Source: Patescibacteria group bacterium (GTDB lineage Bacteria; Patescibacteriota; Minisyncoccia; Minisyncoccales; GWA2-38-27). From it: a stretch of 64,000 nucleotides of DNA. Every line of letters begins with the position of its first letter. Positions within the stretch are counted from its first letter, which is position 1. A program made the translations under genes and the position numbers. The stretch covers positions 576 through 64,575 of the forward strand of contig JAHCRG010000004.1 in the NCBI GenBank assembly GCA_020148045.1, read 5' to 3'. Under the pieces are notes generated by a model, which worked only from the letters and a program-made list of their open reading frames with translations, had not been told where the DNA came from and ran no database searches. Of this stretch, positions 4,500 through 59,833 are shown one piece after another.

Positions 4500-4509
4500 A
4501 GAAACAATC

Positions 4510-5373: not shown

Positions 5374-5375
5374 AA

Positions 5376-6464
5376 GTGATTATGCTAGATATTAAAATTG
5401 GTAACAAAAATATCGGTGCCGAAAACTCTGTGTATATTATTGCCGAGATAGGATCTAATTTTGACGGAGATCTTAGACGCGCAAAATATTTAGCCAAGCT
5501 CGCTAAAGAGGTCGGAGCCGATGCTTATAAAATACAAAACTTTTTAGCCCCGAAGATGCTTTCAGAAAAAGGATTCCAAAATTTTCAGGTTTCTTATCAA
5601 TCAAAATGGGATAGTGGCGTGTTTGAAGTTTATCGCCAAGCAGAATTTCCCAGAAAATGGTTAAAAGAATTATCGGATTATTGTCGCAAGATTGGCATTG
5701 ATTTTTTTTCAAGTCCCTATGACATTGAAGCGGTTAACCTATTAGAAAAGATCGGTGTTCCTGCCTATAAAATTGGATCTGGGGAGATTGATAATTTGGA
5801 ATTTTTAGAATATGTGGCGCGTCTCGGCAAGCCCATTATTTTGTCTTGCGGAACGGCAACCTTGGAGGAGATTGGAAATGCGGTCTCGGTTATTCGCGAT
5901 AGCGGGAATAACCAGATTGTATTATTGCAATGCGTAACTAATTATCCATCACCAATGGCAGATGCCAATATTCGGGCAATGGTTGCTATTAAAGAAAAAT
6001 TCAGAGTTGAGGTTGGTTATTCGGATCATACAATCGGTAAAGAAGGGGGTGGCGACGATCCGCTTTCTGGCACTACTGTTCCCCTGGGTGCTGTAGCTTT
6101 GGGCGCAAGAGTTATTGAAAAACATTTTACTGACGACCGTACTCGCAAGGGTCAGGATCATCCTTTTGCAATGGACATAGAGGGATTTAGAAAAATGGTA
6201 GAAGGAATTAGAGCATTAGAAAAAGCCTTGGGCAATGGAATGAAAAGAATTATGCCGTCAGAGAAAGAAACGGCATTTATAATGCGTCGAGGTATTTATG
6301 CAAGGAAAAAGATTGAAAAGAGCCAAAAGATTTCTCGGGATAGTGTTGAATTTTTACGCCCAGCTACAGGATTACGGCCGCCTCAAATAAATGAAATATT
6401 GGATAAAGTTGCTAAACATAAAATTTTGGCCGGAGAGCCAATCACTCTTGATGATGTTGTTTAA
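5376..6464 (+). CDS. Nonulosonic acid synthase, NeuB/PseI/SpsE family (PEP-condensing) with C-terminal SAF domain
   Basis: IIAEIGSNFDGDL..AK.L...AKEVGADAYKIQ, YSDHT.G, GARVIEKHFT blocks. The C-terminal ISRDSVEFLRPATGL...LAGEPITLDDV is SAF-like. Confidence 0.8.
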   Translation: MIMLDIKIGNKNIGAENSVYIIAEIGSNFDGDLRRAKYLAKLAKEVGADAYKIQNFLAPKMLSEKGFQNFQVSYQSKWDSGVFEVYRQAEFPRKWLKELSDYCRKIGIDFFSSPYDIEAVNLLEKIGVPAYKIGSGEIDNLEFLEYVARLGKPIILSCGTATLEEIGNAVSVIRDSGNNQIVLLQCVTNYPSPMADANIRAMVAIKEKFRVEVGYSDHTIGKEGGGDDPLSGTTVPLGAVALGARVIEKHFTDDRTRKGQDHPFAMDIEGFRKMVEGIRALEKALGNGMKRIMPSEKETAFIMRRGIYARKKIEKSQKISRDSVEFLRPATGLRPPQINEILDKVAKHKILAGEPITLDDVV

Positions 6465-7115
6465 CCAAAAAATAGTCGTTGTTATCCCCGCTTTTAACGA
6501 ATCCAAAACCGTTGAGAGGGTAATAAAAGAAACTAAGCCCTATGCCAATGAAATTATTGTGGTTGATGACGGATCTTATGATGATACCAGCTTAAAGGCA
6601 AAAAAAGTTGGGGCTATCGTTATACACCATAAAAAAAATCAAGGGTACGACGCCTCAATTGAAGATGGATTTCGGGAGGCGTTAAAAAGAAAAGCATCTG
6701 TTATGTGACCTTTGATGCTGATGGGCAGCATCAACCAGAGGATATTAAAAGATTAACCGAGCCAATTATTACCGGGAAGGCTGATATCGTAATTGGACAA
6801 CGACAACATGCTTTTCCTCTTAGCGAGAAAATTTTCGCCTTATATACAAATTTCCGGTTTGGAATTAAGGATCCATTATGTGGACTAAAAGCTTATACTT
6901 CTAAAGTTTATGAGGGTATTGGTCATTTTGATACCTTGGGTTCTATGGGAACTCAATTAATGATAGAAGCTTTACATAGGGGATTCAGAATTGAATTTGT
7001 TCCGATTAATGTTAGACCGCAGGTGGACAGAGCGCATTTTTATTTCAACCGCCTTAAGACGAATTATAAGATTTTAAAAGCAACGATGAAAGTAATTTTA
7101 TTTTTACGGAAATAG
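6451..7115 (+). pseudogene. GT2 glycosyltransferase (DPM1/GtrB-like catalytic domain) interrupted by a frameshift at 6703-6708
   Basis: VVVIPAFNESKTVERV...IVVDDGSYDDT (6451-6708) stops at ATG TGA. The DxD-containing continuation (V)TFDADGQHQPEDI follows in the -1 frame from 6705. Together they form one normal about 220-aa GT2 domain. Confidence 0.7.
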
Positions 7116-7128
7116 ATCACTTATTAAA

Positions 7129-7947
7129 ATGAATGAAACGAGAATAAAACCCATCAGAGGGTTTATAAATATAGATTGGAAAGAACTCTGGAAGTATCGA
7201 GAACTTTTTTATTTTTTGGCTTGGAAAGATATCAAAGTGCGCTATAAACAAACGATTATTGGGATTGGCTGGGCAGTCTTACAGCCTTTTTTAACAATGG
7301 TAATATTTAGTATATTTTTTGGCCGAGTAGCTGGTATTTCCAGCGGAGAAATTCCTTATCCTATTTTTGTTTATGCCGGTCTCCTTTTTTGGAATTATTT
7401 TTCTAATTCTTTGAATAGCGCTAGTAGCAGCTTAGTCAGTAATCAAAAAATTATCCAAAAAATATATTTTCCTCATCTGATTATGCCGATTTCAAGTACA
7501 ATCGTTCATTTAGTTGATTTCTTTTTTGCTGCCCTGATTTTTGTTGGTTTAATGTTTTATTACCATTTCATACCTACTTTTGTCGGCATTCTGCTAATTA
7601 TTCCCTGCCTTTTAATTACTTTTCTCTCTTTTTCTGGTCTTGGCTTAGCTTTTTCAGTTCTCAACGTAAAATACCGTGATGTTCGTTACGCTTTGCCATT
7701 TTTTATTCAACTTTTAGTTTTTGTTACCCCGGTTATTTATCCAACCAGTGTTTTGGGTAGATATCAGTGGCTGTGGTATTTGAATCCAATGAGCGGTGTT
7801 GTTGAGACAATGCGGGCAGGTTTGTTGGGGGTAGGGGCAACAAACTGGGCCCTTCTTGCTTCTTCTGTTCTGATGTCAACTTTATTATTTGTTTTTGGAA
7901 TATTATATTTTAAAAAATCAGAAAGATATTTTGCCGATATTATTTAG
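7129..7947 (+). CDS. ABC-2 type polysaccharide/teichoic-acid export permease (Wzm/TagG-like)
   Basis: Six hydrophobic segments. The WKDIKVRYKQT.IG..W motif is typical of ABC-2 glycan exporters. Directly upstream of the cognate ATPase. Confidence 0.8.
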   Translation: MNETRIKPIRGFINIDWKELWKYRELFYFLAWKDIKVRYKQTIIGIGWAVLQPFLTMVIFSIFFGRVAGISSGEIPYPIFVYAGLLFWNYFSNSLNSASSSLVSNQKIIQKIYFPHLIMPISSTIVHLVDFFFAALIFVGLMFYYHFIPTFVGILLIIPCLLITFLSFSGLGLAFSVLNVKYRDVRYALPFFIQLLVFVTPVIYPTSVLGRYQWLWYLNPMSGVVETMRAGLLGVGATNWALLASSVLMSTLLFVFGILYFKKSERYFADII

Positions 7948-7994
7948 CGACGCCAATATTGGTATGATTAGCATTAATTAGTATATTAGCATCA

Positions 7995-9248
7995 ATGTCT
8001 ATTATTGAAGTAAACAATTTGTCAAAAAGTTATCGTCTGGGGCATAATTTATTTTCTTATCGCTCGCTTAGAGATGAGATGGTAAGCTTTACAAAAAAAC
8101 CTGTCCTTTGGCTTAGAGGAAATAGAGAATTAAGAGAAAATTTTTGGGCTTTGAAAGATATCAGTTTTTCAGTGGAAGAAGGCGAGGTTCTGGGGATTAT
8201 TGGCAGAAACGGAGCTGGTAAAACCACTCTTTTGAAAATCTTATCTCAGATTACGCCTCCTACCAAAGGAGAAGCAGTAATCAAAGGCCGAGTCAGCAGT
8301 CTCCTAGAGGTTGGAACCGGTTTCCATCCGGAATTGACTGGCAAAGAAAATATTTATTTTAACGGTGCTCTTTTAGGAATGACAAAAAAAGAGATTAATT
8401 CCAAATTTGATGAAATCGTTAATTTTGCCGAACTCGAGAAATTCTTAGAGACTCCGGTGAAAAGATACTCCAGCGGAATGTATGTAAGATTAGCTTTTGC
8501 AATTGCTGCTCATTTAGAACCCGAGATACTTTTGGTGGATGAAGTATTAGCTGTTGGAGACACTGCTTTTCAAAAGAAATGTTTGGGAAAAATGAATAAA
8601 GTAGCTCAAAGCGGCAGGACCATTCTGTTTATAAGCCATAATATGGCAGCGATTGAAAACTTATGCACTAGAGCCATTGTTTTAGATGAAGGAAAGAAGA
8701 TTTTTGAAGGCGAAACAAAAAAAGCCATTGATCATTACCTTTTTAGTTATAAAACAGATAGACGAAATTTAAGAGATTTTAGTTCTCGAAAGGGAAATGG
8801 AGAACTCCGGATTGTTGATTTGAAATTTCGCAACAAAGATGGCAAAATAAGAAATTGCATACCCTGTGGAGAACCAATGGACATTCTTATGGAATACGAA
8901 AATTATGGACTTCCAAATAATACCGAAGTGTTTGTAACGTTATATGCCAAAACCGTTCGGGGCACTCCTCTTTTTGAAACAAATAATAAGCTGTCAGGGC
9001 TTCGGCTTGAGAGCAAGAATATTGGGAAACGAGGATTTTTCGTCTGTCATATTAATTCCCTTGCCTTAACTCCTTCAACTTATTTTTTAGATTTATATAT
9101 TAAGCGTTCAGGACAAATTAGTTTGGATGAGATTCCCGGTGCCAGAAAACTAGACATTGAAATGAGTAATTTTTTAGGTTCAGGACAACTTCCTTCCCCG
9201 GCAGCCGGCCCCTTAGTTTTAAAAACAGATTGGAAGGTTGAGAATTAA
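7995..9248 (+). CDS. ABC glycan exporter ATPase (Wzt/TagH-like) with about 170-aa C-terminal extension
   Basis: Walker A GRNGAGKTTLLK, signature YSSGMYVRLAF, Walker B LLVDEVLAVGD. An extra C-terminal domain (residues about 250-417) sits where Wzt carbohydrate-binding domains occur. Confidence 0.85.
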   Translation: MSIIEVNNLSKSYRLGHNLFSYRSLRDEMVSFTKKPVLWLRGNRELRENFWALKDISFSVEEGEVLGIIGRNGAGKTTLLKILSQITPPTKGEAVIKGRVSSLLEVGTGFHPELTGKENIYFNGALLGMTKKEINSKFDEIVNFAELEKFLETPVKRYSSGMYVRLAFAIAAHLEPEILLVDEVLAVGDTAFQKKCLGKMNKVAQSGRTILFISHNMAAIENLCTRAIVLDEGKKIFEGETKKAIDHYLFSYKTDRRNLRDFSSRKGNGELRIVDLKFRNKDGKIRNCIPCGEPMDILMEYENYGLPNNTEVFVTLYAKTVRGTPLFETNNKLSGLRLESKNIGKRGFFVCHINSLALTPSTYFLDLYIKRSGQISLDEIPGARKLDIEMSNFLGSGQLPSPAAGPLVLKTDWKVEN

Positions 9249-9280: not shown

Positions 9281-10558
9281 ATGAATATTCAAAAAAATAA
9301 TAATTTAATAGAAGGAAGAAAAAAAATCATCATTGTTGGTACTGGAGAGCATTATAAAAATATTTTATCTCCATCTTTAGATATTATGAAAAAAGAAGGA
9401 TCGTTTGAACTATTGACTACTGTCAGCAAAGAATCACCAGCTGATTTAAAAAAAACTAAATCTTTTCGAAAGGTTGAACACAGAATAAGAAAAAGGTCTG
9501 AAAAACTTAGTTCTTTACTTTCTGACTTTAAAAATCAGAACCCGGTTGTTATTTTGAGTCATATTAACGAGCTTCATACACCAGACGCATATGATTTGGT
9601 AAAAAATGGCTTTAAAGTGATGATAGAGAAGCCTTATTGCCTAAACAGATCTCAATTTGAGGTTATGCGAAATCTAATAAACCGGCACCCTGACAAAATT
9701 GGGTTATTAGAATACTATCTAATGATGAAATCAATTCCCTTGCTTATTTTAGCTGGCATGGTTAAAAAAGATAGTTTTTATTTCAAAAAAGAAGGGTTAT
9801 TAAAAATACATAAAGGATTGTATTCTTTTGTCAACAATGTAGATGAGTTATCTGGAAGAATAAAAGAATTTATCGGCACACCTAAGTTTATTTTGGTGGA
9901 TGTTCTTGAAGGCGAAGGTAATGTAGGAAGATTAGATCATAGGGGGGCTTTTCTATGCGATCGTAGAAAAGGAGGAGGAATGATTCAGGATTTGGGCATT
10001 CACGCCCTATCTCCTCTTTTTGCCCTTGAGGATTATATAGGGAATATTGGATCGTTTAAAAAAGGAAATATGAGAATTGCTAAATGTAAAGAATATGTTG
10101 ATATGGCAAAAAGAAAATTTGGCTTGTCAGATAAATACCTCGGGGAAACCTATGCTGAAATTGAGTTTTCAACATCAAAAGGTGTACAGGTAATGGTATC
10201 GGTGGGAAAGTATGTTTTAAATAATAAAAACCAGAGAAGAATAGTGATAGTGGGTAGTGAGGGACGAGTTTATTTTGATCTTTCTTCTTGTACGTTATTT
10301 GTCTCAACCGGAGAAAATTCTGAAATGAAAATTTTAGAAATCCCTAAAAAACCGGGTTGTAAATATTATTCTGTTCTAAAAGCAGCTCTTGAAGTTCTTG
10401 AAGGGCATAATCCTTTCAGTTTTAATGCTACCCTTGCAGCTTTAAGAACCCAGTCGTTTATTTTGAATATTCTTGAGAAAGCATATTTTAAAAATAATAA
10501 AATCCGTGTCTATAAAGCAAAGGCCTTACCCCAGAATATAGATACGCGTCCTATATGA
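9281..10558 (+). CDS. Gfo/Idh/MocA-like oxidoreductase (tentative)
   Basis: N-terminal IIIVGTGEHY Rossmann-like start and an MIEKPYC (EKP) motif. Confidence 0.4.
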   Translation: MNIQKNNNLIEGRKKIIIVGTGEHYKNILSPSLDIMKKEGSFELLTTVSKESPADLKKTKSFRKVEHRIRKRSEKLSSLLSDFKNQNPVVILSHINELHTPDAYDLVKNGFKVMIEKPYCLNRSQFEVMRNLINRHPDKIGLLEYYLMMKSIPLLILAGMVKKDSFYFKKEGLLKIHKGLYSFVNNVDELSGRIKEFIGTPKFILVDVLEGEGNVGRLDHRGAFLCDRRKGGGMIQDLGIHALSPLFALEDYIGNIGSFKKGNMRIAKCKEYVDMAKRKFGLSDKYLGETYAEIEFSTSKGVQVMVSVGKYVLNNKNQRRIVIVGSEGRVYFDLSSCTLFVSTGENSEMKILEIPKKPGCKYYSVLKAALEVLEGHNPFSFNATLAALRTQSFILNILEKAYFKNNKIRVYKAKALPQNIDTRPI

Positions 10559-11559
10559 AAAATATCTTTTTAAATCATTTTCATGAATCAGAAATAAAGC
10601 CGCAGGCTTTGTATGAACAATGGAGAAAAGCACTCAAGAAAGATCTTTTGGTATTGTTTCCCGACAAAAAGAAATTTGTGGCTGTGGGTTGTCCAGGATG
10701 TGGTAAACATAATTTTAAGTCAGTGTTTACTAAGTTTGGATTTGAGTATCAACGTTGTAATTTATGTGATAGCTTATTTGTCTCTCCAAGACCAAATACA
10801 AGAACTATAAGAAAATTTTACAAGAATTCTCAGGCAGTGAAATTTTGGGGAAAGAAAATAATGAGGGCTTCTATATCTGCCCGTCGTCGCTATCAATTGT
10901 TTCCTTTATATGTATGGTTTATGGATTTAATAAAAGATTACAAACCTGAAGCTAGAGTAGTCGCTGATTACGAGCCAAAATATTTTAGTTTATTTCTTCC
11001 TGATAAAAATTTCTATACAAAATTTGAGAAAATTATTTTTATAAATCCTTTAGTTTTAGAGCGTAATTTCTCAACTAAGAATATTAAAGTAGTTAATAAT
11101 TTCAGTAATTTAAAAAATAAAGTTGATGTTTTCACCGCTTTTGAGGTTTTAGATAGAGAATTTGACCCAGTTTCTTTTATTAAAAAAGTAAGCAGAATTT
11201 GTCGTAAAGGAGGATTATTTCTTTTAACTGTTAATACTATTAGTGGCTTTGAATATCAAATACTAGGTAAAAATTCACAGAGGCTTGTGCCCCCAGATCG
11301 TTTAAATCTCCTTTCTGTTGAAGCCATTCATCAACTTTTAACCAATGAAGGATTCAGAATTCTTGATATAAGTTCCCCTGGTAAATTAGACGTAGAAATA
11401 GTGGCTAATACTTTTAAGAGTAATTCCAATATTGATATGCCAGAATTTTTAAAATATATGTTTAAGCATCGAAGTAAAGACGCTTGGGAAAATCTTCAAG
11501 ATTTTCTTCAGCTTAATAAATTAAGTTCTTATTTAAGGATCGCGGCTGTAAAAAAGTAA
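10555..11559 (+). CDS. Zinc-ribbon protein, possibly a degenerate methyltransferase
   Basis: The Cys4 ribbon CPGCG...CNLCDS resembles the N-terminal Zn domain of sugar methyltransferases. No clear GxGxG SAM motif is seen. Confidence 0.3.
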   Translation: MKNIFLNHFHESEIKPQALYEQWRKALKKDLLVLFPDKKKFVAVGCPGCGKHNFKSVFTKFGFEYQRCNLCDSLFVSPRPNTRTIRKFYKNSQAVKFWGKKIMRASISARRRYQLFPLYVWFMDLIKDYKPEARVVADYEPKYFSLFLPDKNFYTKFEKIIFINPLVLERNFSTKNIKVVNNFSNLKNKVDVFTAFEVLDREFDPVSFIKKVSRICRKGGLFLLTVNTISGFEYQILGKNSQRLVPPDRLNLLSVEAIHQLLTNEGFRILDISSPGKLDVEIVANTFKSNSNIDMPEFLKYMFKHRSKDAWENLQDFLQLNKLSSYLRIAAVKK

Positions 11560-11562
11560 AAA

Positions 11563-12228
11563 TTGAATAATAAACTATTAAAATATATAAGCATTATGCC
11601 TAAAAGAAATATTAAAAAAATATATAAAAAACATCCTCAACCTATGGAGTATTTTAGAGAGTACTCTAAATATGTTTTCCATTTATTAGCAAATCTGGAT
11701 TACAACACCATTGAAAAAATTACCAAAATTATTTTAGAAAAAAATAAACAAGAGAGAACACTATTTTTAATTGGTAATGGCGGGAGTGCCGCTACCGCTT
11801 CTCACCTTGCTACTGATATTTCACACGGGATTTTATTAAAAGGTAAACCTTTAATTAAAGCAGTTAGCCTTGTTGACAGCATCCCTTTAATAACTGCTAT
11901 TTGTAATGATAAAGGATACGAGAAAATATTTACTACTCAAATTAAAAATTTATTCCGAAAGGGAGATGTATTAATAGCGATTTCTGCCAGTGGAAACTCT
12001 CTCAATATTATAAAATCCGTAAGGCTTGCTAAAAAAATGGGTGGAATAACTATTGGTCTGGTGGGATTTGATGGGGGGAGATTAGCAAAAATCTGTGATT
12101 ATGTTGTTCATGTCCGAACCGAAAAAGGCCAGTATGGTCCAGTAGAAGATATACATAGTTTTCTGGGCCATATGATTACTTCCTATTTGGGTTTAGCTTT
12201 AAACAAAAAGAAAAAGAGGATTTTATGA
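11563..12228 (+). CDS. SIS-domain phosphosugar isomerase, GmhA-like (sedoheptulose-7-phosphate isomerase family)
   Basis: LFLIGNGGSAATASHLATD and AISASGNS blocks. The track start is TTG; an alternative ATG lies at 11596. Confidence 0.7.
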   Translation: MNNKLLKYISIMPKRNIKKIYKKHPQPMEYFREYSKYVFHLLANLDYNTIEKITKIILEKNKQERTLFLIGNGGSAATASHLATDISHGILLKGKPLIKAVSLVDSIPLITAICNDKGYEKIFTTQIKNLFRKGDVLIAISASGNSLNIIKSVRLAKKMGGITIGLVGFDGGRLAKICDYVVHVRTEKGQYGPVEDIHSFLGHMITSYLGLALNKKKKRIL

Positions 12229-13040
12229 AAATTTATTTTAATACCAAAGCTTTTGATTGTCTTGAAGAAAAAAAGAAATTAGATTTAACCGAGGATGTTT
12301 CCCAAGCTGATATTCTTGTTTTGGGAGCTAAGCCAGTTGATTTCTCAAAAGCATCAAACGTAAAAGCTGTTTATCGTTTTGGAGTTGGCCGTGAAAATAT
12401 CCCCGATGAATTGCTAAAAAAGGGTATTCCTCAGGTTTTTTTTCCGAGCGAGAAAGCAAAAGAAATCCTGTATGAATCGACAGCTAATTTCACTGTTTTT
12501 CTAATATTCCAAATGTATTATTGTCCAGTAACCGGAGACATTGACCAATGGGTTAAAAAAACCAGGAATTTTTTCAGAAAAAAGAATCTTTTAATAATAG
12601 GTTTAGGAAATATAGGACAAAGAATAGCAAAAAAAATGGAATTATTTATGAGTGTTAAAACCTACGATATTAAAGAGAATAAATCAGAAGCATTAAAACC
12701 TTTAATTGAATCAGCAGATATTATTACTTTGCATATTCCTTTGTCAAAAGAAAATGAAAATTTTATAGATGCTGAGAAACTTTCTTGGATGAAAAACGAT
12801 GCTATTTTAATAAATACTTCAAGAGGAATTATTGTAGATGAAGAAGCGCTTTACCAGAAGATGCAAAATTCCAACCTTAGAGCAGGTTTTGATGTTTTTT
12901 GGCAAGAACCCTATAATGGAAAACTTAAAGTTTTTGGTCAATCAAAATTTTTTATGACCCCTCACAGCGCCAGTCAAACCATTGAGTTTGTCAAAGAGGG
13001 GTTTAGAGATATATTAGAAATTATTAAAAAGTATGAATAA
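12225..13040 (+). CDS. D-isomer-specific 2-hydroxyacid dehydrogenase family protein
   Basis: IIGLGNIGQRIAKK NAD-binding motif, HIPL, NTSRGIIVDEEAL, and a TPH...S catalytic-region pattern. Confidence 0.7.
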   Translation: MKIYFNTKAFDCLEEKKKLDLTEDVSQADILVLGAKPVDFSKASNVKAVYRFGVGRENIPDELLKKGIPQVFFPSEKAKEILYESTANFTVFLIFQMYYCPVTGDIDQWVKKTRNFFRKKNLLIIGLGNIGQRIAKKMELFMSVKTYDIKENKSEALKPLIESADIITLHIPLSKENENFIDAEKLSWMKNDAILINTSRGIIVDEEALYQKMQNSNLRAGFDVFWQEPYNGKLKVFGQSKFFMTPHSASQTIEFVKEGFRDILEIIKKYE

Positions 13041-13773
13041 AAAAATAAATTTCAGAAATAAAACAGCTTTAATAACCGGAGCAACCCAGGGAATTGGTGA
13101 ATGTATCGCTAATTCTTTATGGGAGTTGGGATGCAATATTATTGCAACAGGTTTAGAAATTAATCCACCCAAAAGAATAACCAAAAAAACAAGATTTAAT
13201 TATCACCAGTTAGATTTCTTGGATCCCGAAAGTTTGAATAAATTTTTAGATTATATAAAAGGTTTTAATAATATTGATATATTAATTAATAATGCCGGAA
13301 TTTGTATTAATCAGCCCATAGACGAAATAGCGGAAGAAAACTGGTACAAAGTTCTTCAAGTAAATTTAACTGGTCCCATGATTCTAATAAAAACAGCGGC
13401 AAAAATTATGAAAAAGAAAAAAAATGGTAAGATACTTAACATTAGTTCAATTTTTGGGGTGGTATCAAAAGAAACGCGGAATGCTTATTCTGCCAGCAAA
13501 TCAGGTTTAATAGGGTTAACCAGGGCAACGAGTTTAGATTTAGCAAAATACAATATTTTAGTAAATGCCTTGTGTCCAGGATTTACTTTAACAAAACTTA
13601 CTAAATCCGTATTAGGTAAAGCCGGAATAGCTAAAATGAGAAAAACCATTCCTTTGCAGCAACTTGCTAAAGTTGATGATATAGCCAACGTTGCTTTATT
13701 TCTTTGCTCGGATTTAAATACCTATATCACCGGGCAAACAATAATTGCCGACGGAGGTTTCACAGTACAATGA
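13033..13773 (+). CDS. Short-chain dehydrogenase/reductase (FabG-like)
   Basis: TGATQGIGECIA (TGxxxGIG), NNAG, S...YSASK (YxxxK), and a PG.T tail. Confidence 0.8.
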   Translation: MNKKINFRNKTALITGATQGIGECIANSLWELGCNIIATGLEINPPKRITKKTRFNYHQLDFLDPESLNKFLDYIKGFNNIDILINNAGICINQPIDEIAEENWYKVLQVNLTGPMILIKTAAKIMKKKKNGKILNISSIFGVVSKETRNAYSASKSGLIGLTRATSLDLAKYNILVNALCPGFTLTKLTKSVLGKAGIAKMRKTIPLQQLAKVDDIANVALFLCSDLNTYITGQTIIADGGFTVQ

Positions 13774-14837
13774 TAATAAAATCTAAGATAAAAAATTATA
13801 CAATGGAACTTACAGACAAGGTATTGGAGCAGAAAGATTTATTAAAAACAGATAATATTCATCAAAAATATTTATATTTAATTGATGATAGTGTTTATAA
13901 GATTTACCAAAAGCAACTTGAGCCTTTTATTGGTAAAAATAATTTAGTTATTATACCGGCTACTGAAGATTCTAAATCTTTTCATTCGCTAGCTAAAATT
14001 TACCGAGCGTTAATTAATAATGAATTTAGAAAAAAAGATACCTTAGTAACATTTGGGGGAGGGGTGCTTCAAGATATTAGCGGATTTATTGCTTCAACGA
14101 TTTATCGAGGCGTGAAATGGGTATTTTTTCCAACTACCCTTTTAGCTCAGGCAGATAGTTGTATTGGTTCAAAGACCTCAATAAATTTCGATGAAAGTAA
14201 AAATTTAATCGGAACTTTTTATCCCCCGGATAAAATATATATAGATATTAATTTTCTCAGCACCTTAAAAGATGATTATTTTTATAGTGGGGTAGGTGAA
14301 ATTATTAAATTTCACCTTATGGCTGATAATAAAAGATATCAATTATTGAGAAAATTTTTGGCTACTTCCGACCTCAAAAAATCAAATATCTTAAAAAAGA
14401 TAATAAAATCTACTTTGTTTATAAAAAAATCGTACTTTGAAGGAGATGAACTTGATTTGGGTAGAAGAAACTTGTTAAATTATGGCCACTGTTTCGGACA
14501 TGCCTTAGAATCAGCAAGTAATTTTGCTGTTTCTCATGGACAAGCCGTAATTGTGGGAATGGGATTTGCCAATCTTTTGTCTTTAAAAAGAGGCCTAATG
14601 ACAAAAGAAAAATATGATGAATTTGAAGAAATTTTAGAGAAATATTATCCTCGCTTTGATATCTCAAAAATTAGTATAGGAGATATTATATATCATTTAA
14701 AACGTGATAAAAAAAGAGTTGGCAAGGATTTAACCATGATTCTCTCTCAAGATATTGGCAAACAATTTAAATTTAACGACATAAAAGAAAAAGAAATTAT
14801 AGAAACCTTTAATGATTTTGTAAAAAATTATGACTGA
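13770..14837 (+). CDS. 3-dehydroquinate synthase-like sugar-phosphate cyclase
   Basis: FGGGVLQDISGFIASTIYRGVKWVFFPTTLLAQADSCIGSKTSINF and NYGHCFGHALE match DHQS-family core blocks. ATG 13770 overlaps the SDR stop. Confidence 0.8.
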   Translation: MIIKSKIKNYTMELTDKVLEQKDLLKTDNIHQKYLYLIDDSVYKIYQKQLEPFIGKNNLVIIPATEDSKSFHSLAKIYRALINNEFRKKDTLVTFGGGVLQDISGFIASTIYRGVKWVFFPTTLLAQADSCIGSKTSINFDESKNLIGTFYPPDKIYIDINFLSTLKDDYFYSGVGEIIKFHLMADNKRYQLLRKFLATSDLKKSNILKKIIKSTLFIKKSYFEGDELDLGRRNLLNYGHCFGHALESASNFAVSHGQAVIVGMGFANLLSLKRGLMTKEKYDEFEEILEKYYPRFDISKISIGDIIYHLKRDKKRVGKDLTMILSQDIGKQFKFNDIKEKEIIETFNDFVKNYD

Positions 14838-15531
14838 GAAATATAAAGTCACTGCCTTATTACCAATGAAGGGTCATAGTGAACGTATACCTGAAAAAAA
14901 TATAAAACTCTTAGGGGGGAAACCGCTTTTTTTTCATGTATTGGAGAGCTTAGAATCAACTAAATTTGTTTATGAAATTATAGTAAATACAGATAGTCAA
15001 AAGATAATTTCTCTTATAAAAAAGAATTTCCCAAGAGTGGTTATAATAAAAAGACCTCAACATTTATTGGGCGATAAGGTTCCGATGACACCACTAATAG
15101 AACATGACATAAAATTTGCTAAAACAAAACATTTTTTACAAACCCATGCTGTTACCCCACTTTTAAAAGCAAGTACCTTTGATAAGGCAATCAAAACTTA
15201 TTTTGAGGGACTGAACAAGGGGGCTGATTCTGTAATAGGAGTTACCAGATACCAGACAAGATTTTATAACCATAACAAACATCCTATTAATCACGACCCA
15301 AATATAATGGTTCCATCACAAGATATGCCTCCCTTATACGAAGATAACTCTTGCTTTTACATAAATTCAATTGAAAATTTTTTAAAACGCAAAGACCGAG
15401 TAGGTAAAAATCCAATTTTCGTTGAGATATCTAAATTAGAAAATGTAGAGATTGATGAAGAAGAGGATTTTGTTCTGGCTGAGGCTCTCTTTAATTTTTT
15501 AAAAAATAAAAGTAAATATTATGGGAAATAA
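14830..15531 (+). CDS. Acylneuraminate-type cytidylyltransferase (CMP-sugar synthetase, second copy in locus)
   Basis: ALLPMKGHSERIPEKNIKLLGGKPLFFHVLESL matches the CTP_transf_3 N-terminal signature. Confidence 0.7.
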   Translation: MTEKYKVTALLPMKGHSERIPEKNIKLLGGKPLFFHVLESLESTKFVYEIIVNTDSQKIISLIKKNFPRVVIIKRPQHLLGDKVPMTPLIEHDIKFAKTKHFLQTHAVTPLLKASTFDKAIKTYFEGLNKGADSVIGVTRYQTRFYNHNKHPINHDPNIMVPSQDMPPLYEDNSCFYINSIENFLKRKDRVGKNPIFVEISKLENVEIDEEEDFVLAEALFNFLKNKSKYYGK

Positions 15532-16261
15532 TAATGAAGTATATGTTGGGGGCTGGTTAACTCGGCCAAATAACGCAATTACAGAAGTTATGGCTAAAAG
15601 CGGGTATTTTGACTGGCTTGCTATAGATATAGAACACAACCCTATTTCAATTAACCAGGTAGAAGATATGATACGAATAATACAGCTTTCCAATGTAGAA
15701 GCTTTTGTTCGTTTATCAGAAAATAATCCTACCTTAATTAAACGAGTTCTGGATGCCGGGGCTGACGGTATTATAGTCCCCATGGTAAACTCAGCCGATG
15801 ATGTTAAAAAAGCAAAGGATGCATGTTTTTATCCATCTCGAGGTAAACGAGGTGTGGGATTATCCCGTGCCCAGAATTATAACCCATCTGGTTTACAAAA
15901 ATATATAAAGGATAAAGAACCAAAAACAAAAATCATAATACAAATTGAACATATTGATGCAGTAAAGCAAATTAATGAAATATTTTCTGTTAAAGGTGTC
16001 TTTGGTTACTTTATAGGACCATATGATTTATCCGCCTCTTTAGGTAAACCCGGAGATTTTAAATGCAAAGAAGTTATTGAAGCACTTAAAATTGTAAAGC
16101 AAGCAGGAATCAAATACCAGATTCGAGCAGGCTATCATGTTATTGAACCTGACCCTCAAGAAGTACTAAATAAGAAAAAAGAAGGTTATAAAATTATAGC
16201 TGTATCAACAGATATGTTATTCTTTTTAAGGGGTTTAGAATTGGCATTTAAAAACAATTAA
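15521..16261 (+). CDS. HpcH/HpaI-family class II (pyruvate-dependent) aldolase
   Basis: GYFDWLAIDIEHNP, VRLSENNPTLIKRVLDAGADGIIVPMV, and YPSRGKRGVG match the HpcH/HpaI/GarL/YfaU aldolase blocks. Confidence 0.8.
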   Translation: MGNNNEVYVGGWLTRPNNAITEVMAKSGYFDWLAIDIEHNPISINQVEDMIRIIQLSNVEAFVRLSENNPTLIKRVLDAGADGIIVPMVNSADDVKKAKDACFYPSRGKRGVGLSRAQNYNPSGLQKYIKDKEPKTKIIIQIEHIDAVKQINEIFSVKGVFGYFIGPYDLSASLGKPGDFKCKEVIEALKIVKQAGIKYQIRAGYHVIEPDPQEVLNKKKEGYKIIAVSTDMLFFLRGLELAFKNN

Positions 16262-16268
16262 ATACAAT

Positions 16269-16727
16269 ATGATATTTGATACCATAAATAATCTAAGTAA
16301 ATATAAATCAATACCCAACCTTGACCTTATTGTTGATTTTATTAAAGACAAAAATCTTTTAGATTTATCAGAAAGTGAAATTGAAATAAAAGGAAGAAAT
16401 CTTTTTGTTAAAGCGCTTCGTTATTTCCCAAAACTTGCAGAAGAAAGAAACTTTGAAACCCATAAAATATACACCGATGTTCAAATTATAGTCAAAGGTG
16501 TGGAAAAAATACAAATTACAAATAAAGAGAATTTAAAAGAAGAGATTGAAGATAAAAAAGACCGAGAAGATTTTCAGCTTTTTACTGCCTCTGGTGATAT
16601 CTCAGAGATTATTGCTAAAGAAAGTAATTTTGTTGTCTTTTTCCCGGGCGAACCCCATAAACCCAGCTGCGTTTACCAAAAATTAGACAAACCGATTATG
16701 AAATTAATCTTTAAAACAACTCCTTAA
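16269..16727 (+). CDS. YhcH/YjgK/YiaL (DUF386) family protein, sialic-acid-associated beta-barrel
   Basis: 152 aa. MIFDTINNLSKY..., ETHKIYTDVQIIVKGVEKI, and FFPGEPHKP resemble the YhcH/EbgC-like family. Confidence 0.7.
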   Translation: MIFDTINNLSKYKSIPNLDLIVDFIKDKNLLDLSESEIEIKGRNLFVKALRYFPKLAEERNFETHKIYTDVQIIVKGVEKIQITNKENLKEEIEDKKDREDFQLFTASGDISEIIAKESNFVVFFPGEPHKPSCVYQKLDKPIMKLIFKTTP

Positions 16728-16749
16728 AAATATAATAAAAAAATAAGAT

Positions 16750-17769
16750 ATGAATTTTATTCCAAAAACGATAAAAAAAATTATCCCTGATCCATTTAAG
16801 GTTTTCTATATCCAAATGTGTGATTATTTGAGAAGAACCAACTTAGGGAAAAGGCTTCCCTTTAAGTTAGTATTAATTGAAACCACAACTTATTGTAATC
16901 TAAAATGTAAAGGTTGCTACCGTACTACGCATGATTATCCTAGTAAAAATAAACAGATGTCATTAGATGATTTTAAAATATATATAAATCAGTTGCCACG
17001 CGCTGATAATTTAACACTGCATGGTATGGGAGAACCAACAATTAATCCTGCTTTACCCGAAATGGTTGAATATGCACGTAAGAGTGGTAAATTTAAGCGA
17101 ATTACGTTTACAACAAATGCTTTGGTTCATAATCCTATTATCTATGATGAATTATTTCAAAGAGGATTAAGCGATTTTAGTATATCTGTAGACTCGTTGG
17201 ATCCCCAAGAAGTTGCTAAATTAAGACCATCTACTGATGTGGAGCTTCTAATCAAGAATATTAAATATTTAGTTGATAAATATTCAGATAAGATTAAGTT
17301 TGGTATTCTCATAAGTAAAGGAAATATCAATACTTTTCATCAGACAATTAAAAAATTAACTGATATTGGCGCTAAGTTGATAACCTGCGGACTTTTTAGC
17401 GACTTTGGTTATCCGGTGTTGTGTCTATCTTCTAAGGAGAAGAAAGAATTTTTAGAACGGAAAAAACAGATTAAAATTAAAGGTGTCAAGATAATATCAA
17501 CGGGATGGTTCAAACCTGTTACACAGCCATGTCGTATGGTTAACCAAGCTGTTCTTGTAGAGGTTGATGGAAATTTAGCTCCTTGCTGTTATAAAATAGA
17601 TAGAGGCATATCTTTTGGAAACTTGAAGAAAACCCCGTTTAAAAAAGATATTTTCCTAAAGAAAAATAACGATTTGCAACGTAATATAACGAAAGGAAAA
17701 TATCCATCTTTTTGTAAGAGTTGTTTGGGAAATCACATTGAATTTAAACTAAAAAAAGAAAAACAATGA
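16750..17769 (+). CDS. Radical SAM enzyme with C-terminal auxiliary-cluster (twitch/SPASM-like) Cys motifs
   Basis: CNLKCKGC is the CxxxCxxC motif. C-terminal C-x13-G-x4-PCC and FCKSC motifs are present. Confidence 0.8.
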   Translation: MNFIPKTIKKIIPDPFKVFYIQMCDYLRRTNLGKRLPFKLVLIETTTYCNLKCKGCYRTTHDYPSKNKQMSLDDFKIYINQLPRADNLTLHGMGEPTINPALPEMVEYARKSGKFKRITFTTNALVHNPIIYDELFQRGLSDFSISVDSLDPQEVAKLRPSTDVELLIKNIKYLVDKYSDKIKFGILISKGNINTFHQTIKKLTDIGAKLITCGLFSDFGYPVLCLSSKEKKEFLERKKQIKIKGVKIISTGWFKPVTQPCRMVNQAVLVEVDGNLAPCCYKIDRGISFGNLKKTPFKKDIFLKKNNDLQRNITKGKYPSFCKSCLGNHIEFKLKKEKQ

Positions 17770-19236: not shown

Positions 19237-20472
19237 ATGTATAAACTTTTATATTTGGTAAGAGCAGAAGCTGATTTTGAGCGAGTGGTTGCTTTGGCTA
19301 TCGCTGGAAAAGATAAATTTAAACAAACTTTTATTTTTACAGGCAGTTTGCCCCCTTTTTTTGTTAATGAAATCCAAAATCAGTTTCAAAAACATCTTTT
19401 CAAAAAACATGGCTTTAAAATAAAAGATTTATGCGATTACGATATAATTGGGATTATCCTAAAAAAATTTTCCTATAAAGAAAAATTTTCTATTGCTGAT
19501 GAGATTTTTAAATCAAGAAAAAAATTATTTAAATTTTTAGTACCATTGGCATTTTTATATTTGCTTAGACAATATAAAGAACTTAGAAAAAGAAAAATAA
19601 CAAAAAAAATATTAAAAGAAGTAAATCCAGATGCTTTATTAACAGATGCTTCTCAGCCTATGCCAGATTATGTTCCCGAAGTATTTAGAAAAGCGGCTTT
19701 TGAAATGGGAATACCATCTTGTATCTTTCCCCATGGAGCGGCGGGGGGCTTACATCAAGCATTTTCAGAGCCCAAATGTCATAATTATAAAAATTATTAT
19801 GTTTTTGTTTGCAGCGACTTAGACATAAAAACCATCTCGGCTGATAGAATCATTCTTGGCGATATGTCTTCCAGTTTTCCCTACGTAAATTACCTTCATA
19901 GTATTAATAGTCATACCCTATCTTTCTTAAATGATAGAAAATTTAAAATTGCTTTCCTCCAGTCAGGCGTTATAGGTTATTATACGTCAACAAATGCTTG
20001 GTTAGAGATGGAAAAAATAATTATTAATTTGTCTAACAATCCCGATGTGGCAATGATTATTAAAAAACATCCCAGAAAAAGCGACACAATTACTGATTTC
20101 AGAATGTTCTCTACCTTTAATAATGTTAAAATCGTCGGCTCGGAGTGTGATAGATCAAGAGTGGTAAAATGGGCAGATATTATTGTTTGCAGTGACCACT
20201 GTTCAACCATATTTGAACCTATGATTCTCGGTAAGAAAGTGGTGGCTATTGAGGGTACGCATATCCCAAAGTATAAAGACAAACATAGCCCCTTGAAAAA
20301 TTCAAGCGTAAAATATATCTCTTCAGCCGAAGAATTTGATTTTAATTCTATACCCAACGCAAATCCAGAAGACCCGGTTACAAATCGAATCTGCTGGGGA
20401 AATCACGGTAAAGTTGATTTGGCTAGATTATTCTTAGAAAAAGTAGAAGAGATTATTATGAATAGAAGATAA
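19237..20472 (+). CDS. GT-B-like polymer-forming transferase (TagF/KpsS-like), tentative
   Basis: The C-terminal half has MIIKKHPRKS and ADIIVCSDHCSTIFEPMILGKKVV, resembling TagF-type or KpsS-type blocks. The N-terminal half is not recognised. Confidence 0.35.
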   Translation: MYKLLYLVRAEADFERVVALAIAGKDKFKQTFIFTGSLPPFFVNEIQNQFQKHLFKKHGFKIKDLCDYDIIGIILKKFSYKEKFSIADEIFKSRKKLFKFLVPLAFLYLLRQYKELRKRKITKKILKEVNPDALLTDASQPMPDYVPEVFRKAAFEMGIPSCIFPHGAAGGLHQAFSEPKCHNYKNYYVFVCSDLDIKTISADRIILGDMSSSFPYVNYLHSINSHTLSFLNDRKFKIAFLQSGVIGYYTSTNAWLEMEKIIINLSNNPDVAMIIKKHPRKSDTITDFRMFSTFNNVKIVGSECDRSRVVKWADIIVCSDHCSTIFEPMILGKKVVAIEGTHIPKYKDKHSPLKNSSVKYISSAEEFDFNSIPNANPEDPVTNRICWGNHGKVDLARLFLEKVEEIIMNRR

Positions 20473-20484: not shown

Positions 20485-21864
20485 ATGAGAGAAATAAAAT
20501 ATCAAAAAATTGATTTTCTTATTGTCGGCGCTTCGTATCAAGGAAGAAAGAATTTTTATTATAATTTAGCGCAGGAATTTCACAAAAAAGGTTATCAAAG
20601 CTGTGTATTAACAGGCTGTTACGAAGAATATAGGCAATTGAAAAATCAACAAATTTATTGTTTATATTTAAACAATTTGATTAGGATACTAAATAAAATC
20701 AAAAATATTGAAGAAAAGGCAAGCCAAATAGAGAAAAAATATAACATTCCGAGTTTAAACAATTTTATTTTTACTGAAAAATGCTATTGCGGTGAGAAAG
20801 ATAATTATCTTATAAAAAAGGCCATCATATGTTTTGAGGTATTGGAAAAATTACTAATGAATCTACAGCCAAAATGTGTGATTCAAAATCAAGGAGGAGA
20901 AATTCATAGACGAGTACTGCATATGATTGCCCGAAAAAGAGGAATTCCAGTTATTTATTTTGGAGAAAGTTTTTTCCCTGATAAAATGTTACTACATTCA
21001 GATGAGATGAATACTTTAACTGAATATAAAAATATTCCATGGGATGAAGTAACTGATAACCAAAAGAGAGAAATTGAAAAACATATAGAAGATTTTGTCA
21101 GTCAGAAAAGTATTTTCCGATACTTTTTTTTCAAAAAAAGAACATTGATTGAATTTTTTAGGATATTTTTAGGTTATGTCAAAAATCGTGAATTCAGAAA
21201 TTTAAGAATTGCTCTTCGAACAAAATTTAAATGGTATATTATTGATAATTTTAACAAACTTTTTTCAGTTTTTCTTTATCAGGATTACTTAAAGGATGAA
21301 AAATTTATTTATTTCCCTTTACATGTTCCAGATGATTCACAAATTACCATCAGAAATCCTCAATTTTACGATCAAGCGTCACTTGCTTTATATATAGCGA
21401 AAATGATACCTTTTGGATATAAACTTTATGTTAAAGAACATCCAGGTAGTCTTATTTCGGTTAGAGATAAAAGAAGGTTAAATAAAGAAAACAGTATTGT
21501 TCTTTTGAATCCAAGAATCAATTCTCATTTGGTTATAGAGAAATCAAAAGCTATTGTTATTATTAATTCTACAGTTGGATTTGAAGCTCTTCATTATTCA
21601 AAACCAGTAATTGTTTTGGGAAATTGGAATCTAAAAGGCAAAGGAATAACTATAGATGTTGATAATATTTTTAATTTAGATAAAGCGATCAAATTTGCAT
21701 TAGAAACAAGAGTAAATCCAGAAAAGATTAAAGCCTTTTTGTTTTCATTAAAAGAATCAATGTATGAGGGGAGTATTTTGAAAAAAAATATAGATTATCC
21801 CTTAGTGGTTCAATCATTGATCAAAAAGTTTAATAAATCTAAAAATAAATACTTTGAAGAATAA
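20485..21864 (+). CDS. Capsule_synth (KpsC/KpsS) family glycosyltransferase-like protein
   Basis: FIYFPLHVPDDSQI, LYVKEHPGS, and INSTVGFEALHYSKPVIVLG match the hallmark blocks of KpsC/KpsS beta-Kdo transferases. Confidence 0.6.
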   Translation: MREIKYQKIDFLIVGASYQGRKNFYYNLAQEFHKKGYQSCVLTGCYEEYRQLKNQQIYCLYLNNLIRILNKIKNIEEKASQIEKKYNIPSLNNFIFTEKCYCGEKDNYLIKKAIICFEVLEKLLMNLQPKCVIQNQGGEIHRRVLHMIARKRGIPVIYFGESFFPDKMLLHSDEMNTLTEYKNIPWDEVTDNQKREIEKHIEDFVSQKSIFRYFFFKKRTLIEFFRIFLGYVKNREFRNLRIALRTKFKWYIIDNFNKLFSVFLYQDYLKDEKFIYFPLHVPDDSQITIRNPQFYDQASLALYIAKMIPFGYKLYVKEHPGSLISVRDKRRLNKENSIVLLNPRINSHLVIEKSKAIVIINSTVGFEALHYSKPVIVLGNWNLKGKGITIDVDNIFNLDKAIKFALETRVNPEKIKAFLFSLKESMYEGSILKKNIDYPLVVQSLIKKFNKSKNKYFEE

Positions 21865-59680: not shown

Positions 59681-59741
59681 TATAGTGGTAGTACGTAACC
59701 TTCCCAAGGTTGAAGCGCCGGTTCAATCCCGGTATCCCGCT
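59671..59741 (+). tRNA. tRNA-Gly (anticodon CCC)
   Basis: The cloverleaf folds by hand: acceptor GCGGGAT/ATCCCGC, D arm GTAT/GTAC, anticodon arm TAACC-TTCCCAA-GGTTG, and T arm GCCGG-TTCAATC-CCGGT. No encoded CCA. Confidence 0.85.
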
Positions 59742-59748
59742 CAATTAT

Positions 59749-59820: not shown

Positions 59821-59833
59821 CTTTTTATTTTCA

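Follow-up and report, generated by a model that had tools for sequence, protein, structure and literature searches.

Within a 64,000-nucleotide stretch of DNA from a Patescibacteria group bacterium (GenBank assembly GCA_020148045.1, contig JAHCRG010000004.1; the whole stretch is referred to as 'the window' and its first letter is position 1), the genes at 9281-17769 constitute a real and widely conserved module for the biosynthesis of a sugar activated with cytidine monophosphate (CMP), which recurs in many bacterial and archaeal phyla and has a realistic chance of harboring new chemistry. On balance, we lean towards the view that its product is an acidic C7 sugar activated with CMP, and that neither an aldolase nor a NeuB-type synthase takes part in making it. 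A preliminary description of the window had singled out eight consecutive, mostly overlapping genes (11563-17769) as a self-contained pathway that could not be mapped to any characterized nucleotide-sugar route, and had offered two hypotheses: a NeuB-independent ulosonic acid built by an HpcH/HpaI aldolase, and a C7 cyclitol or aminocyclitol. That interpretation is partly supported: each of the two hypotheses is half right, and the evidence presented here merges them.

Organization and limits of the module

The eight open reading frames (ORFs) at 11563-17769 were confirmed at their coordinates, all of them co-directional on the + strand, and their Pfam and NCBIfam assignments agree with the families named in the preliminary description. 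Adjoining genes in this block overlap by 4-11 nt or are else separated by gaps of 7-22 nt, and a sequence scan of the module for promoter-like and terminator-like sites yielded none above chance, which taken together fits one long operon. While the grouping of these genes is real, the functional module is wider: we place its left edge at 9281, since the dehydrogenase and the methyltransferase encoded upstream recur elsewhere together with, or fused to, isomerase, 2-hydroxyacid dehydrogenase and methyltransferase domains. The features of the module are as follows.

9281-10558, + strand: NAD(P) dehydrogenase resembling the GFO/IDH/MocA family and glucose-6-phosphate dehydrogenase (G6PDH), 425 aa (weak Pfam GFO N and C matches, motifs, AlphaFold2 (AF2) model)
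10555-11559, + strand: S-adenosylmethionine (SAM) methyltransferase, Methyltransf_23-like, 334 aa, a tailoring enzyme (Pfam)
11596-12228, + strand: GmhA-like SIS sugar-phosphate isomerase (Pfam SIS_2 and SIS; closest PDB entry GmhA)
12225-13040, + strand: D-isomer 2-hydroxyacid dehydrogenase (2HADH), short form, 271 aa (Pfam 2-Hacid_dh_C)
13033-13773, + strand: classical short-chain dehydrogenase/reductase (SDR), a ketoreductase (Pfam adh_short and motifs)
13770-14837, + strand: TIGR04425 AroB-related sugar-phosphate phospho-lyase resembling 3-dehydroquinate synthase (DHQS), 355 aa (Pfam DHQ_synthase N and C domains, NCBIfam, active-site residues)
14830-15531, + strand: module-specific cytidylyltransferase of the CMP-(ulosonic acid) synthetase type (Pfam CTP_transf_3)
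15521-16261, + strand: HpcH/HpaI class II 2-oxoacid aldolase, accessory (Pfam HpcH_HpaI)
16269-16727, + strand: YhcH/YjgK/YiaL (DUF386) protein (Pfam and NCBIfam)
16750-17769, + strand: radical-SAM enzyme with Radical_SAM and SPASM domains (Pfam, cysteine motifs)

The start of the DHQS-like gene is the ATG at 13770 and not 13704, the N-terminus MIIKSKIKNY... being common to its homologues, and the isomerase gene probably starts at 11596 within an ORF that is open from 11563.

The DHQS-like enzyme

Against TIGR04425 ('AroB-related putative sugar phosphate phospholyase (cyclizing)'), for which 400 bits is the curated cut-off, the DHQS-like protein scores 411.2 bits, and its relatives in the two groups of loci described below (A and B) score 389-456 bits. 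Against the aroB equivalog TIGR01357, it reaches 304.6 bits and thus falls short of the cut-off (305) by 0.4 bits, the corresponding scores of the relatives being 257-296 bits. TIGR04425 is already distinguished bioinformatically from AroB, as a hypothetical equivalog; a literature search found no paper on this family. The best PDB matches of the protein are true DHQS structures. Its identity to annotated aroB genes is 29-34%, and the proteins that are 60-90% identical to it are encoded in glycan loci of Margulisbacteria, Omnitrophota, Pseudomonadota and archaea.

For comparison of active sites, the protein was aligned with the DHQS of A. nidulans, H. pylori, B. subtilis and T. thermophilus as well as with BtrC, ValA and one desmethyl-4-deoxygadusol synthase (DDGS), using reference sequences of the DHQS superfamily from the supplement of PMC4426668. 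In A. nidulans numbering, all 13 DHQS active-site residues (R130, D146, K152, N162, E194, K197, K250, R264, N268, H271, H275, H287 and K356) are retained in the window protein, as they are in 78 of 78 related genome proteins (with K or H at 197). The other members of the superfamily depart from this pattern in characteristic ways: the synthase of 2-deoxy-scyllo-inosose (DOIS) carries R264G, N268E and K356N, the synthase of 2-epi-5-epi-valiolone (EEVS) carries K250M, N268D, H275P and K356V, and DDGS diverges more. The fingerprint common to EEVS and DDGS (K250M, N268D/A, H275P, K356V) is absent from the window protein, which has K, N, H and K at these positions, and so is that of DOIS (R, N and K at 264, 268 and 356), the YPP motif alone being common with BtrC. 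The trio of K250, R264 and K356 is complete solely in enzymes with a carboxylate-bearing substrate; its retention suggests that the substrate is probably a compound with carboxylate and phosphate, resembling 3-deoxy-D-arabino-heptulosonate 7-phosphate (DAHP), rather than sedoheptulose-7-phosphate (S7P) or glucose-6-phosphate. With AroB, the enzyme has in common the fold, the 13 active-site residues and the NAD+/Zn2+ machinery. It differs in its substrate loops, where QADSCIGSKTSIN and FYPP form a family signature (QADSCIGSKTSIN corresponding to VDSSVGGKTGIN in AroB, and YPP to YQP), in having an SDR partner, and in lying within a glycan locus whose vicinity is free of shikimate genes.

Conserved partners across genomes

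A genome scan with the DHQS-like protein yielded 80 loci, in which ORFs were called, clustered, labelled and annotated with Pfam. In 70 of these loci, the gene immediately preceding the DHQS-like gene, and in most cases overlapping it, encodes an SDR, and the SDR is the obligate partner of the DHQS-like enzyme. Group A was counted in the 33 loci flanked by 6 kb or more on each side; its core comprises the SDR (32 loci), a GFO-type dehydrogenase (32), the 2HADH (30), the SIS isomerase (27) and a CTP_transf_3 cytidylyltransferase (32). Such frequencies show that the grouping is not due to chance. Less regular companions among the same 33 loci are HpcH (17), a methyltransferase of the window type (13), YhcH (10), MptE/Maf-like transferases (10), a PF04199 hydrolase (8) and NeuB (3). 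The conserved unit consists of five enzymes and the cytidylyltransferase; the add-ons are HpcH, YhcH and the radical-SAM enzyme, and the exact eight-gene block of the window is not conserved. Group A includes Bacteroides, Prevotellaceae, Mucilaginibacter, Joostella and Hydrosulfovibrio along with Actinomycetota, Dehalococcoidia, Methanoregula and Nitrososphaeria, and cultured carriers of the module are Mucilaginibacter segetis, Joostella sp. CR20 and Hydrosulfovibrio ferrireducens.

The loci with the closest relatives of the DHQS-like protein (73-90% identical) contain neither an HpcH nor a radical-SAM gene. One of their layouts reads SIS, 2HADH, GFO, SDR, DHQS-like, cytidylyltransferase-cupin fusion, aminotransferase, and another DHQS-like, cytidylyltransferase-cupin fusion, DUF386. 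Likewise, no other aldolase is present in the HpcH-free loci L048, L050, L064, L072, L076 and L078. The 2HADH, SDR and DHQS-like genes of the window are closest to those of one Margulisbacteria locus, whereas the left part is of the type found in the candidate phyla radiation (CPR), which makes the window a mosaic. No paper on this gene set, including the combination of IMPase, MocA and 2HADH, was found in the literature; there is no characterized pathway with this gene set, in agreement with the earlier statement that the block could not be matched to a known route.

The same SDR/DHQS-like pair occurs in a second setting, group B, counted at 15 loci, where it is accompanied by an acetolactate-synthase-like thiamine-pyrophosphate enzyme, a divergent NeuB/PseI-like or HpcH-like enzyme, an ArnC/PgfS-like polyprenyl-phosphate glycosyltransferase of family 2 (GT2) and a flippase-like protein. 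The group B loci contain no cytidylyltransferase, and group B is another uncharacterized system. Loci of this kind bear the labels L011-L029, L032-L035, L039, L043, L045, L046, L051, L056, L066 and L069.

Core enzymes and phosphatase-type sister modules

The SIS protein scores 102.8 bits against the gmhA equivalog (cut-off 209), and its closest PDB entry is GmhA of B. pseudomallei (93 bits). At the equivalents of the GmhA metal ligands (H64, E68, Q175 and H183) it has H, D, E and H, R72 is replaced by G, and the phosphate loop SASGNS is present. The 2HADH (Pfam 2-Hacid_dh_C, E = 4.6e-35) is closest in the PDB to phosphoglycerate dehydrogenase and to glyoxylate/glycerate dehydrogenases, and its family also includes 2-ketoaldonate reductases. 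The SDR exhibits the motifs TGxxxGxG, NNAG and YxxxK.

For the dehydrogenase at 9281-10558, the Pfam GFO N and C matches are weak and below threshold for this protein alone. Its AF2 model (pLDDT 88.5), however, displays the GFO/G6PDH fold, that is, a Rossmann domain with an alpha/beta domain after it, and an EKP motif; a second motif is GGGMIQDLGIH. The top PDB match of the model is H. pylori G6PDH, followed by GFO-family sugar 1-dehydrogenases and other G6PDHs (E ~1e-17 to 1e-15 for the top matches), and we propose that the protein is an aldose-phosphate 1-dehydrogenase. Among its 69 homologues are fusions to SIS (P0165, P0172, P0177), to 2-Hacid_dh (P0186, P0188, P0206) and to Methyltransf_23 (P0196, P0201-P0203, P0207), six of the fusions having been verified by Pfam. 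Members of this family named by NCBI come from Patescibacteria (Nealsonbacteria), Pacearchaeota and Nanoarchaeota.

The cytidylyltransferase at 14830-15531 is, as previously described, the second one in the window, the first being located at 3699-4499. It belongs to PF02348 at the level of the family and to no equivalog of known specificity (KdsB, NeuA, PseF): it scores 90 bits against PseF (cut-off 205) and 44 bits against NeuA structures, and KdsB models cover its N-terminus only. Its identity is 42-49% to the cytidylyltransferases of other DHQS loci and 29-34% to those of the phosphatase-type sister modules described next; those of L090 and L091, for example, are 34% and 29% identical to it, and 19-26% identical to the upstream enzyme at 3699-4499. 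In eight loci (L001, L003, L006, L041, L064, L078, L088, L089), the cytidylyltransferase carries a cupin domain fused at its C-terminus, and an aminotransferase accompanies this fusion in six of six loci analyzed (L001, L003, L006, L041, L064, L078).

A metagenome scan with an alignment of the GFO-like dehydrogenase revealed sister loci in which the same enzymes are combined with a phosphatase of the IMPase family. Their layouts include (i) cytidylyltransferase, GFO-2HADH fusion, IMPase, (ii) cytidylyltransferase, GFO-SIS fusion, 2HADH, IMPase, and (iii) cytidylyltransferase, GFO-methyltransferase fusion, Ldh_2, IMPase. In one sister locus, which has the last of these layouts, the 2HADH is replaced by an Ldh_2-family dehydrogenase, a family unrelated to 2HADH which acts on 2-hydroxyacids. 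L094, which reads GFO-like, methyltransferase, SIS, B12-radical-SAM, 2HADH, IMPase, HpcH, cytidylyltransferase, is syntenic with the window: its GFO-like, methyltransferase and SIS proteins are 60-75% identical to those of the window and its HpcH is 46% identical, and it has an IMPase. Together with syntenic L092, the trio of GFO-like, methyltransferase and SIS proteins spans 60-78% identity with the window (61-66% for the methyltransferase at 10555-11559). None of 50 GFO-like sister loci contains a DHQS-like gene, and an IMPase homologue was found in one of the 80 DHQS loci, at a distance of 9 kb. This near-mutual exclusion indicates that the DHQS-like enzyme with its SDR and the IMPase are alternatives at the same point of one family of pathways. 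The aldolase-free modules among the sister loci (L090, L091, L093, L094, L106, L111-L113, L116, L125 and L126) combine a G6PDH/GFO-like dehydrogenase, often fused, with 2HADH or Ldh_2, the IMPase-family phosphatase and the cytidylyltransferase, and appear to be uncharacterized in their own right.

Proposed pathway

From what is directly observed, namely the family assignments, the active-site residues, the co-occurrence, the fusions and the mutual exclusion of DHQS-like enzyme and phosphatase, we infer substrates, order of steps and product as follows, each core family keeping to its customary chemistry. The GmhA-like isomerase would convert S7P into an aldoheptose-7-phosphate, which the G6PDH/GFO-like dehydrogenase would oxidize at C1 to heptonate-7-phosphate and the 2HADH then at C2 to hept-2-ulosonate-7-phosphate. 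This compound would correspond to S7P with a carboxylate at C1, that is, to the 3-hydroxy analogue of DAHP, and it would fit a DHQS-type pocket because such a pocket has sites for carboxylate and phosphate. The DHQS-like enzyme would bind both groups, oxidize C5 with its bound NAD+ and eliminate phosphate, and the SDR would reduce the keto group remaining thereafter. In the sister modules, the phosphatase would instead free the ulosonic acid for CMP activation.

The outcome that we favor, although tentatively and with less than even confidence, is a 7-deoxy-hept-2-ulosonic acid in which the anomeric C2 is kept, a preference owed to the neighboring CMP-ulosonic-acid transferase families and to the phosphatase swap. 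In this outcome, the hydride would be returned to C7 via an enol-ether enone, as in NDP-hexose 4,6-dehydratases, and the resulting 5-keto-7-deoxy sugar would be reduced by the SDR or, in the cupin-fused variants, aminated by the aminotransferase. YhcH might handle the anomer or tautomer, the cytidylyltransferase would form the CMP-sugar, tailoring could involve the methyltransferase, HpcH and the radical-SAM enzyme, and KpsC/S-like and BFO_1060-like transferases encoded downstream would place the sugar onto a glycan exported by Wzm/Wzt. The part of the earlier proposal which called for a NeuB-independent, CMP-activated sugar of the ulosonic type is supported by the CMP-transferase of the module, by YhcH and by the nearby transferases of the ulosonic type. 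Taken more broadly, a route widespread in bacteria and archaea may lead to CMP-ulosonic acids through oxidation of a ketose phosphate by an isomerase and by C1 and C2 dehydrogenases in place of aldol condensation, with either a DHQS-fold deoxygenase or a carba-ulosonic acid at its end and a new class of C7 acidic surface sugars as its result, a notion to which we give somewhat less than an even chance.

Several points weigh against the pathway as drawn. All substrate assignments derive from homology and gene context, and the comparison loci are, with few exceptions, metagenome-assembled genomes whose ORFs come from a simple caller of our own. The dehydrogenase at 9281-10558 aligns with the canonical GFO of other DHQS loci with an hhalign probability of 10%, and three sister loci hold both kinds, so that the functions of the two kinds may differ. 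HpcH keeps its presumed catalytic residues and adjoins the CMP-transferase in many loci, and the model assigns it no role. Group B uses the DHQS-like/SDR pair without a CMP-transferase. Finally, every characterized member of the DHQS superfamily, to our knowledge, cyclizes its substrate, which leaves a non-cyclizing outcome without precedent, and the enol-pyranose intermediate cyclizes spontaneously.

Alternative pathways

The last point leads to an outcome which is less likely, in our judgment, than the 7-deoxy sugar yet deserves to be taken seriously, namely that the same oxidative route ends in the full DHQS reaction, with C7 attacking the C2 ketone to yield a carbocyclic, quinate-like 'carba-ulosonic acid'. 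In that case, and with the same modest likelihood, the SDR would reduce the ring ketone, a step of the type that converts DHQ to quinate, and the cytidylyltransferase would activate a tertiary alpha-hydroxy acid. All 13 catalytic and binding residues of DHQS are retained, TIGR04425 is named 'cyclizing', and it is established that characterized DHQS, DOIS, EEVS and DDGS all form carbocycles. A carbocycle has no ring oxygen, however, so that a tertiary carbon linked to CMP would be unable to act as glycosyl donor, whereas the module adjoins Maf/MptE-like, polysialyltransferase-like, KpsC/S-like and BFO_1060-like transferases, and in homologous modules with homologous cytidylyltransferases a simple phosphatase stands in the place of the DHQS-like enzyme and SDR. 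Improbable, in turn, is the earlier idea that HpcH builds the keto acid by condensing pyruvate with an aldose or aldose phosphate, the resulting 3-deoxy-2-ulosonic acid (for example a DAHP-like compound from tetrose-4-phosphate) then being activated with CMP. HpcH keeps the presumed catalytic residues (His, Arg, Glu, Asp), its closest PDB entry is the 2-keto-3-deoxy-sugar aldolase YfaU, its gene overlaps that of the cytidylyltransferase and is present in about half of the group A loci, the DHQS fingerprint would suit a 3-deoxy acid phosphate, and group B pairs the DHQS-like enzyme and SDR with an HpcH-like or NeuB-like enzyme. What speaks for the oxidative route instead is that HpcH occurs in 17 of 33 loci and is lacking both in the closest relatives and in complete-looking loci without any other aldolase, that minimal sister modules manage without any aldolase at all, and that condensation would leave the near-universal SIS, GFO and 2HADH enzymes unexplained; hence HpcH is probably not the keto-acid builder.

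The second of the original hypotheses, a C7 cyclitol or aminocyclitol formed straight from S7P by an enzyme of the S7P-cyclase type with a BtrN-like radical-SAM dehydrogenase as its partner, we consider very unlikely in this form. An origin from S7P and a reaction of the DHQS type are plausible, the SIS protein is GmhA-like, the radical-SAM protein, in which one auxiliary-cluster motif is conserved, has BtrN among its fold matches (at rank 29), and aminotransferases occur in some related loci. Yet the fingerprint is that of DHQS and not of EEVS, DDGS or DOIS, the module of the window contains no aminotransferase, group A universally has an ulosonate-type CMP-transferase, and the radical-SAM family has 22 members, the others of which are found in unrelated sugar-tailoring clusters, with BtrN unseen at E = 10. 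Least credible of all is that the DHQS-like gene is simply the shikimate-pathway aroB of the organism, a possibility which the preliminary description had tied to retention of the DHQ-specific residues. These residues are indeed all kept, and the aroB cut-off is missed narrowly; but the protein passes the TIGR04425 cut-off, it is about 30% identical to annotated aroB and much closer to proteins from glycan loci, its gene is translationally coupled to those of the SDR and the cytidylyltransferase in a glycan operon, and no other shikimate gene is present among the ~35 annotated ORFs of the window. Plain AroB was accordingly set aside as very improbable on context, family score and identity. Also rejected were an S7P cyclase and DOIS on their fingerprint residues, a BtrN-type partner of the cyclase on lack of a sequence match, on its rank among the fold matches and on a pairing that is not conserved, and, because their partner genes are absent, the ebo operon and the pathways to mycosporine-like amino acids (MAA)/gadusol, 2-deoxystreptamine (2-DOS), valienamine and Kdo8N.

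Comparison with known systems

The nearest known logic is that of the route to CMP-activated 3-deoxy-D-manno-octulosonic acid (Kdo; enzymes KdsD, KdsA, KdsC and KdsB), together with the KDN-9-phosphate synthase/phosphatase route. The CMP-Kdo route likewise proceeds from an isomerase via the phosphate of a 2-keto-acid sugar and the removal of phosphate to activation by a CTP_transf_3 enzyme and transfer by a KpsC/S-type transferase. There, however, the keto acid arises from condensation with phosphoenolpyruvate (PEP), where the module apparently relies on two oxidations (GFO-like, 2HADH), the phosphate is removed by a phosphatase rather than by a DHQS-like lyase with an SDR, and the isomerase is of the KdsD rather than the SIS GmhA type. 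NeuB-dependent pathways (Neu5Ac, Pse, Leg) also provide CMP-activated acidic keto sugars for surface glycans and employ YhcH-type and Maf-type accessory proteins, and a PseB/NeuB-type module is encoded 5 kb upstream; in contrast, 9281-17769 contains no NeuB, and the carbon skeleton is probably C7 and not C9.

EEVS, DDGS and DOIS belong to the same superfamily as the DHQS-like enzyme, whose product probably also has an S7P-derived carbon skeleton; the difference is that their fingerprints are absent and that, unlike in the DOIS/BtrN pair, the radical-SAM enzyme is not a conserved partner. By analogy, the proposed chemistry may be compared with that of the NDP-hexose 4,6-dehydratase, 3,5-epimerase and 4-ketoreductase (RmlB, RmlC and RmlD), in which NAD+ transiently oxidizes the position beside the carbon with the leaving group, elimination ensues and a separate SDR then reduces the ketone, and the NDP-hexose logic would extend to the optional cupin or YhcH and to the aminotransferase of some variants. 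The enzymes are unrelated, though, the leaving group in the module would be phosphate and not water, and the substrate would be a free keto-acid sugar phosphate and not an NDP-sugar.

In the CMP-activated sugars known to us (Kdo, sialic, pseudaminic and legionaminic acids), the keto-acid head stems from condensation with PEP or pyruvate. If the pathway proposed here is correct, oxidation would constitute a second, independent route to CMP-activated keto-acid sugars, and unknown C7 acidic sugars, either 7-deoxy or carbocyclic, would be present on uncultured bacteria and archaea, gut Bacteroides, Prevotellaceae and Patescibacteria. TIGR04425 would obtain its first function, and the chemistry of the DHQS fold might reach beyond the formation of carbocycles; if the carbocycle were formed after all, it would be the first CMP-activated carbocyclic 'carba-ulosonic' acid. 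The cultured carriers make the prediction directly testable.

Add-on enzymes

The closest PDB entry of HpcH is YfaU (115 bits), with which EH, R, QxE and GPxDL align, as is appropriate for a class II aldolase; of the conserved residues, we take His and Arg to be catalytic and Glu and Asp to be metal ligands. Possible roles for HpcH are stereo-editing, chain extension or an alternative supply route. YhcH is possibly an anomerase, tautomerase or epimerase. YhcH or a cupin-cytidylyltransferase fusion is found in 15 of 43 group A loci, and MptE/Maf-like transferases accompany a free YhcH in ten of ten loci.

The radical-SAM protein belongs to the Radical SAM / SPASM-twitch superfamily (SPASM 33 bits), with a CX3CX2C motif at 49-56 (C49, C53, C56). 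Its C-terminal auxiliary-cluster cysteines, to which the preliminary description had drawn attention, are conserved: C261-x12-G-x4-C279 and C322-x2-C325 are invariant or nearly so in the family, and the motif CX12GX4C...CX2C is consistent with one auxiliary cluster. The 22 homologues found reside in other sugar-tailoring clusters or stand alone, none of their clusters containing a DHQS-like gene, and among DHQS-like modules hardly any but that of the window has the radical-SAM gene. Its fold matches are CteB, DesII, anSME, viperin, MoaA, BlsE and, at rank 29 (TM-score normalized to the query, TMq, 0.48), BtrN, which is undetectable from this protein by sequence even at E = 10, so that the BtrN-like partnership once suggested is not borne out. 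The protein is a putative sugar-tailoring enzyme. Homologues with ~50% identity are located in two clusters (L085, L086) where radical-SAM/SPASM genes number three to five and are joined by B12-radical-SAM genes, by transketolase genes split into pairs and by a fusion of SDR and methyltransferase; these clusters look like elaborate tailoring loci for branched sugars.

The surrounding glycan locus

The module sits inside a glycan locus of the ABC-transporter (Wzm/Wzt) type on a metagenome scaffold, a sign that this Patescibacteria genome invests heavily in surface glycans. Upstream of it are a set of PseB, KdsB-like cytidylyltransferase, RmlD-like and NeuB-like genes and then Wzm and Wzt; downstream are a GT2, a HAD-like protein, a glycosyltransferase with weak resemblance to the BFO_1060 family, a Capsule_synth protein of the KpsC/S type, methyltransferases and GT4s. 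Two downstream features are relevant for transfer of the sugar.

19237-20472, + strand: candidate ulosonic-acid transferase, 411 aa (weak NF046086 match)
20485-21864, + strand: KpsC/KpsS-type (Capsule_synth) transferase (Pfam PF05159, E = 3.2e-14)

The KpsC/KpsS-like transferases earlier reported downstream thus reduce to a single ORF with this domain, at 20485-21864, whose product is a candidate for installing the CMP-activated sugar. The sole match of its neighbor at 19237-20472 is NF046086 (BFO_1060 family glycosyltransferase), with 32.9 bits far under the cut-off of 200. In related loci, Maf/MptE-like and polysialyltransferase-like transferases are encoded near the module.

A separate module of the nonulosonic-acid type is located at 2773-6464 and comprises a PseB equivalog (473 bits), the KdsB-like cytidylyltransferase (3699-4499), an RmlD-like reductase and a NeuB/PseI-like synthase (5376-6464). 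No aminotransferase or acetyltransferase is encoded beside it, which may point to a 7-hydroxy rather than a 7-amino nonulosonic acid. The Wzm/Wzt exporter (7129-9248), whose ATPase bears a Wzt_C carbohydrate-binding domain, a type of domain that usually recognizes the chain-terminating residue, adjoins the two CMP-sugar modules and several methyltransferases in this Patescibacteria genome. At 6391-7115, one A is missing near 6703 when compared with the European Nucleotide Archive (ENA) copy of the same scaffold (L004), this being the sole base difference across ~21 kb. It shifts the frame of a GT2 gene which is intact (221 aa) in L004, and may reflect either a difference in assembly or a genuine pseudogene. 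Three tRNA genes, Gly-CCC, Thr-CGT and Gln-CTG, are located towards the 3' end of the window (59671-59821, 63064-63135).

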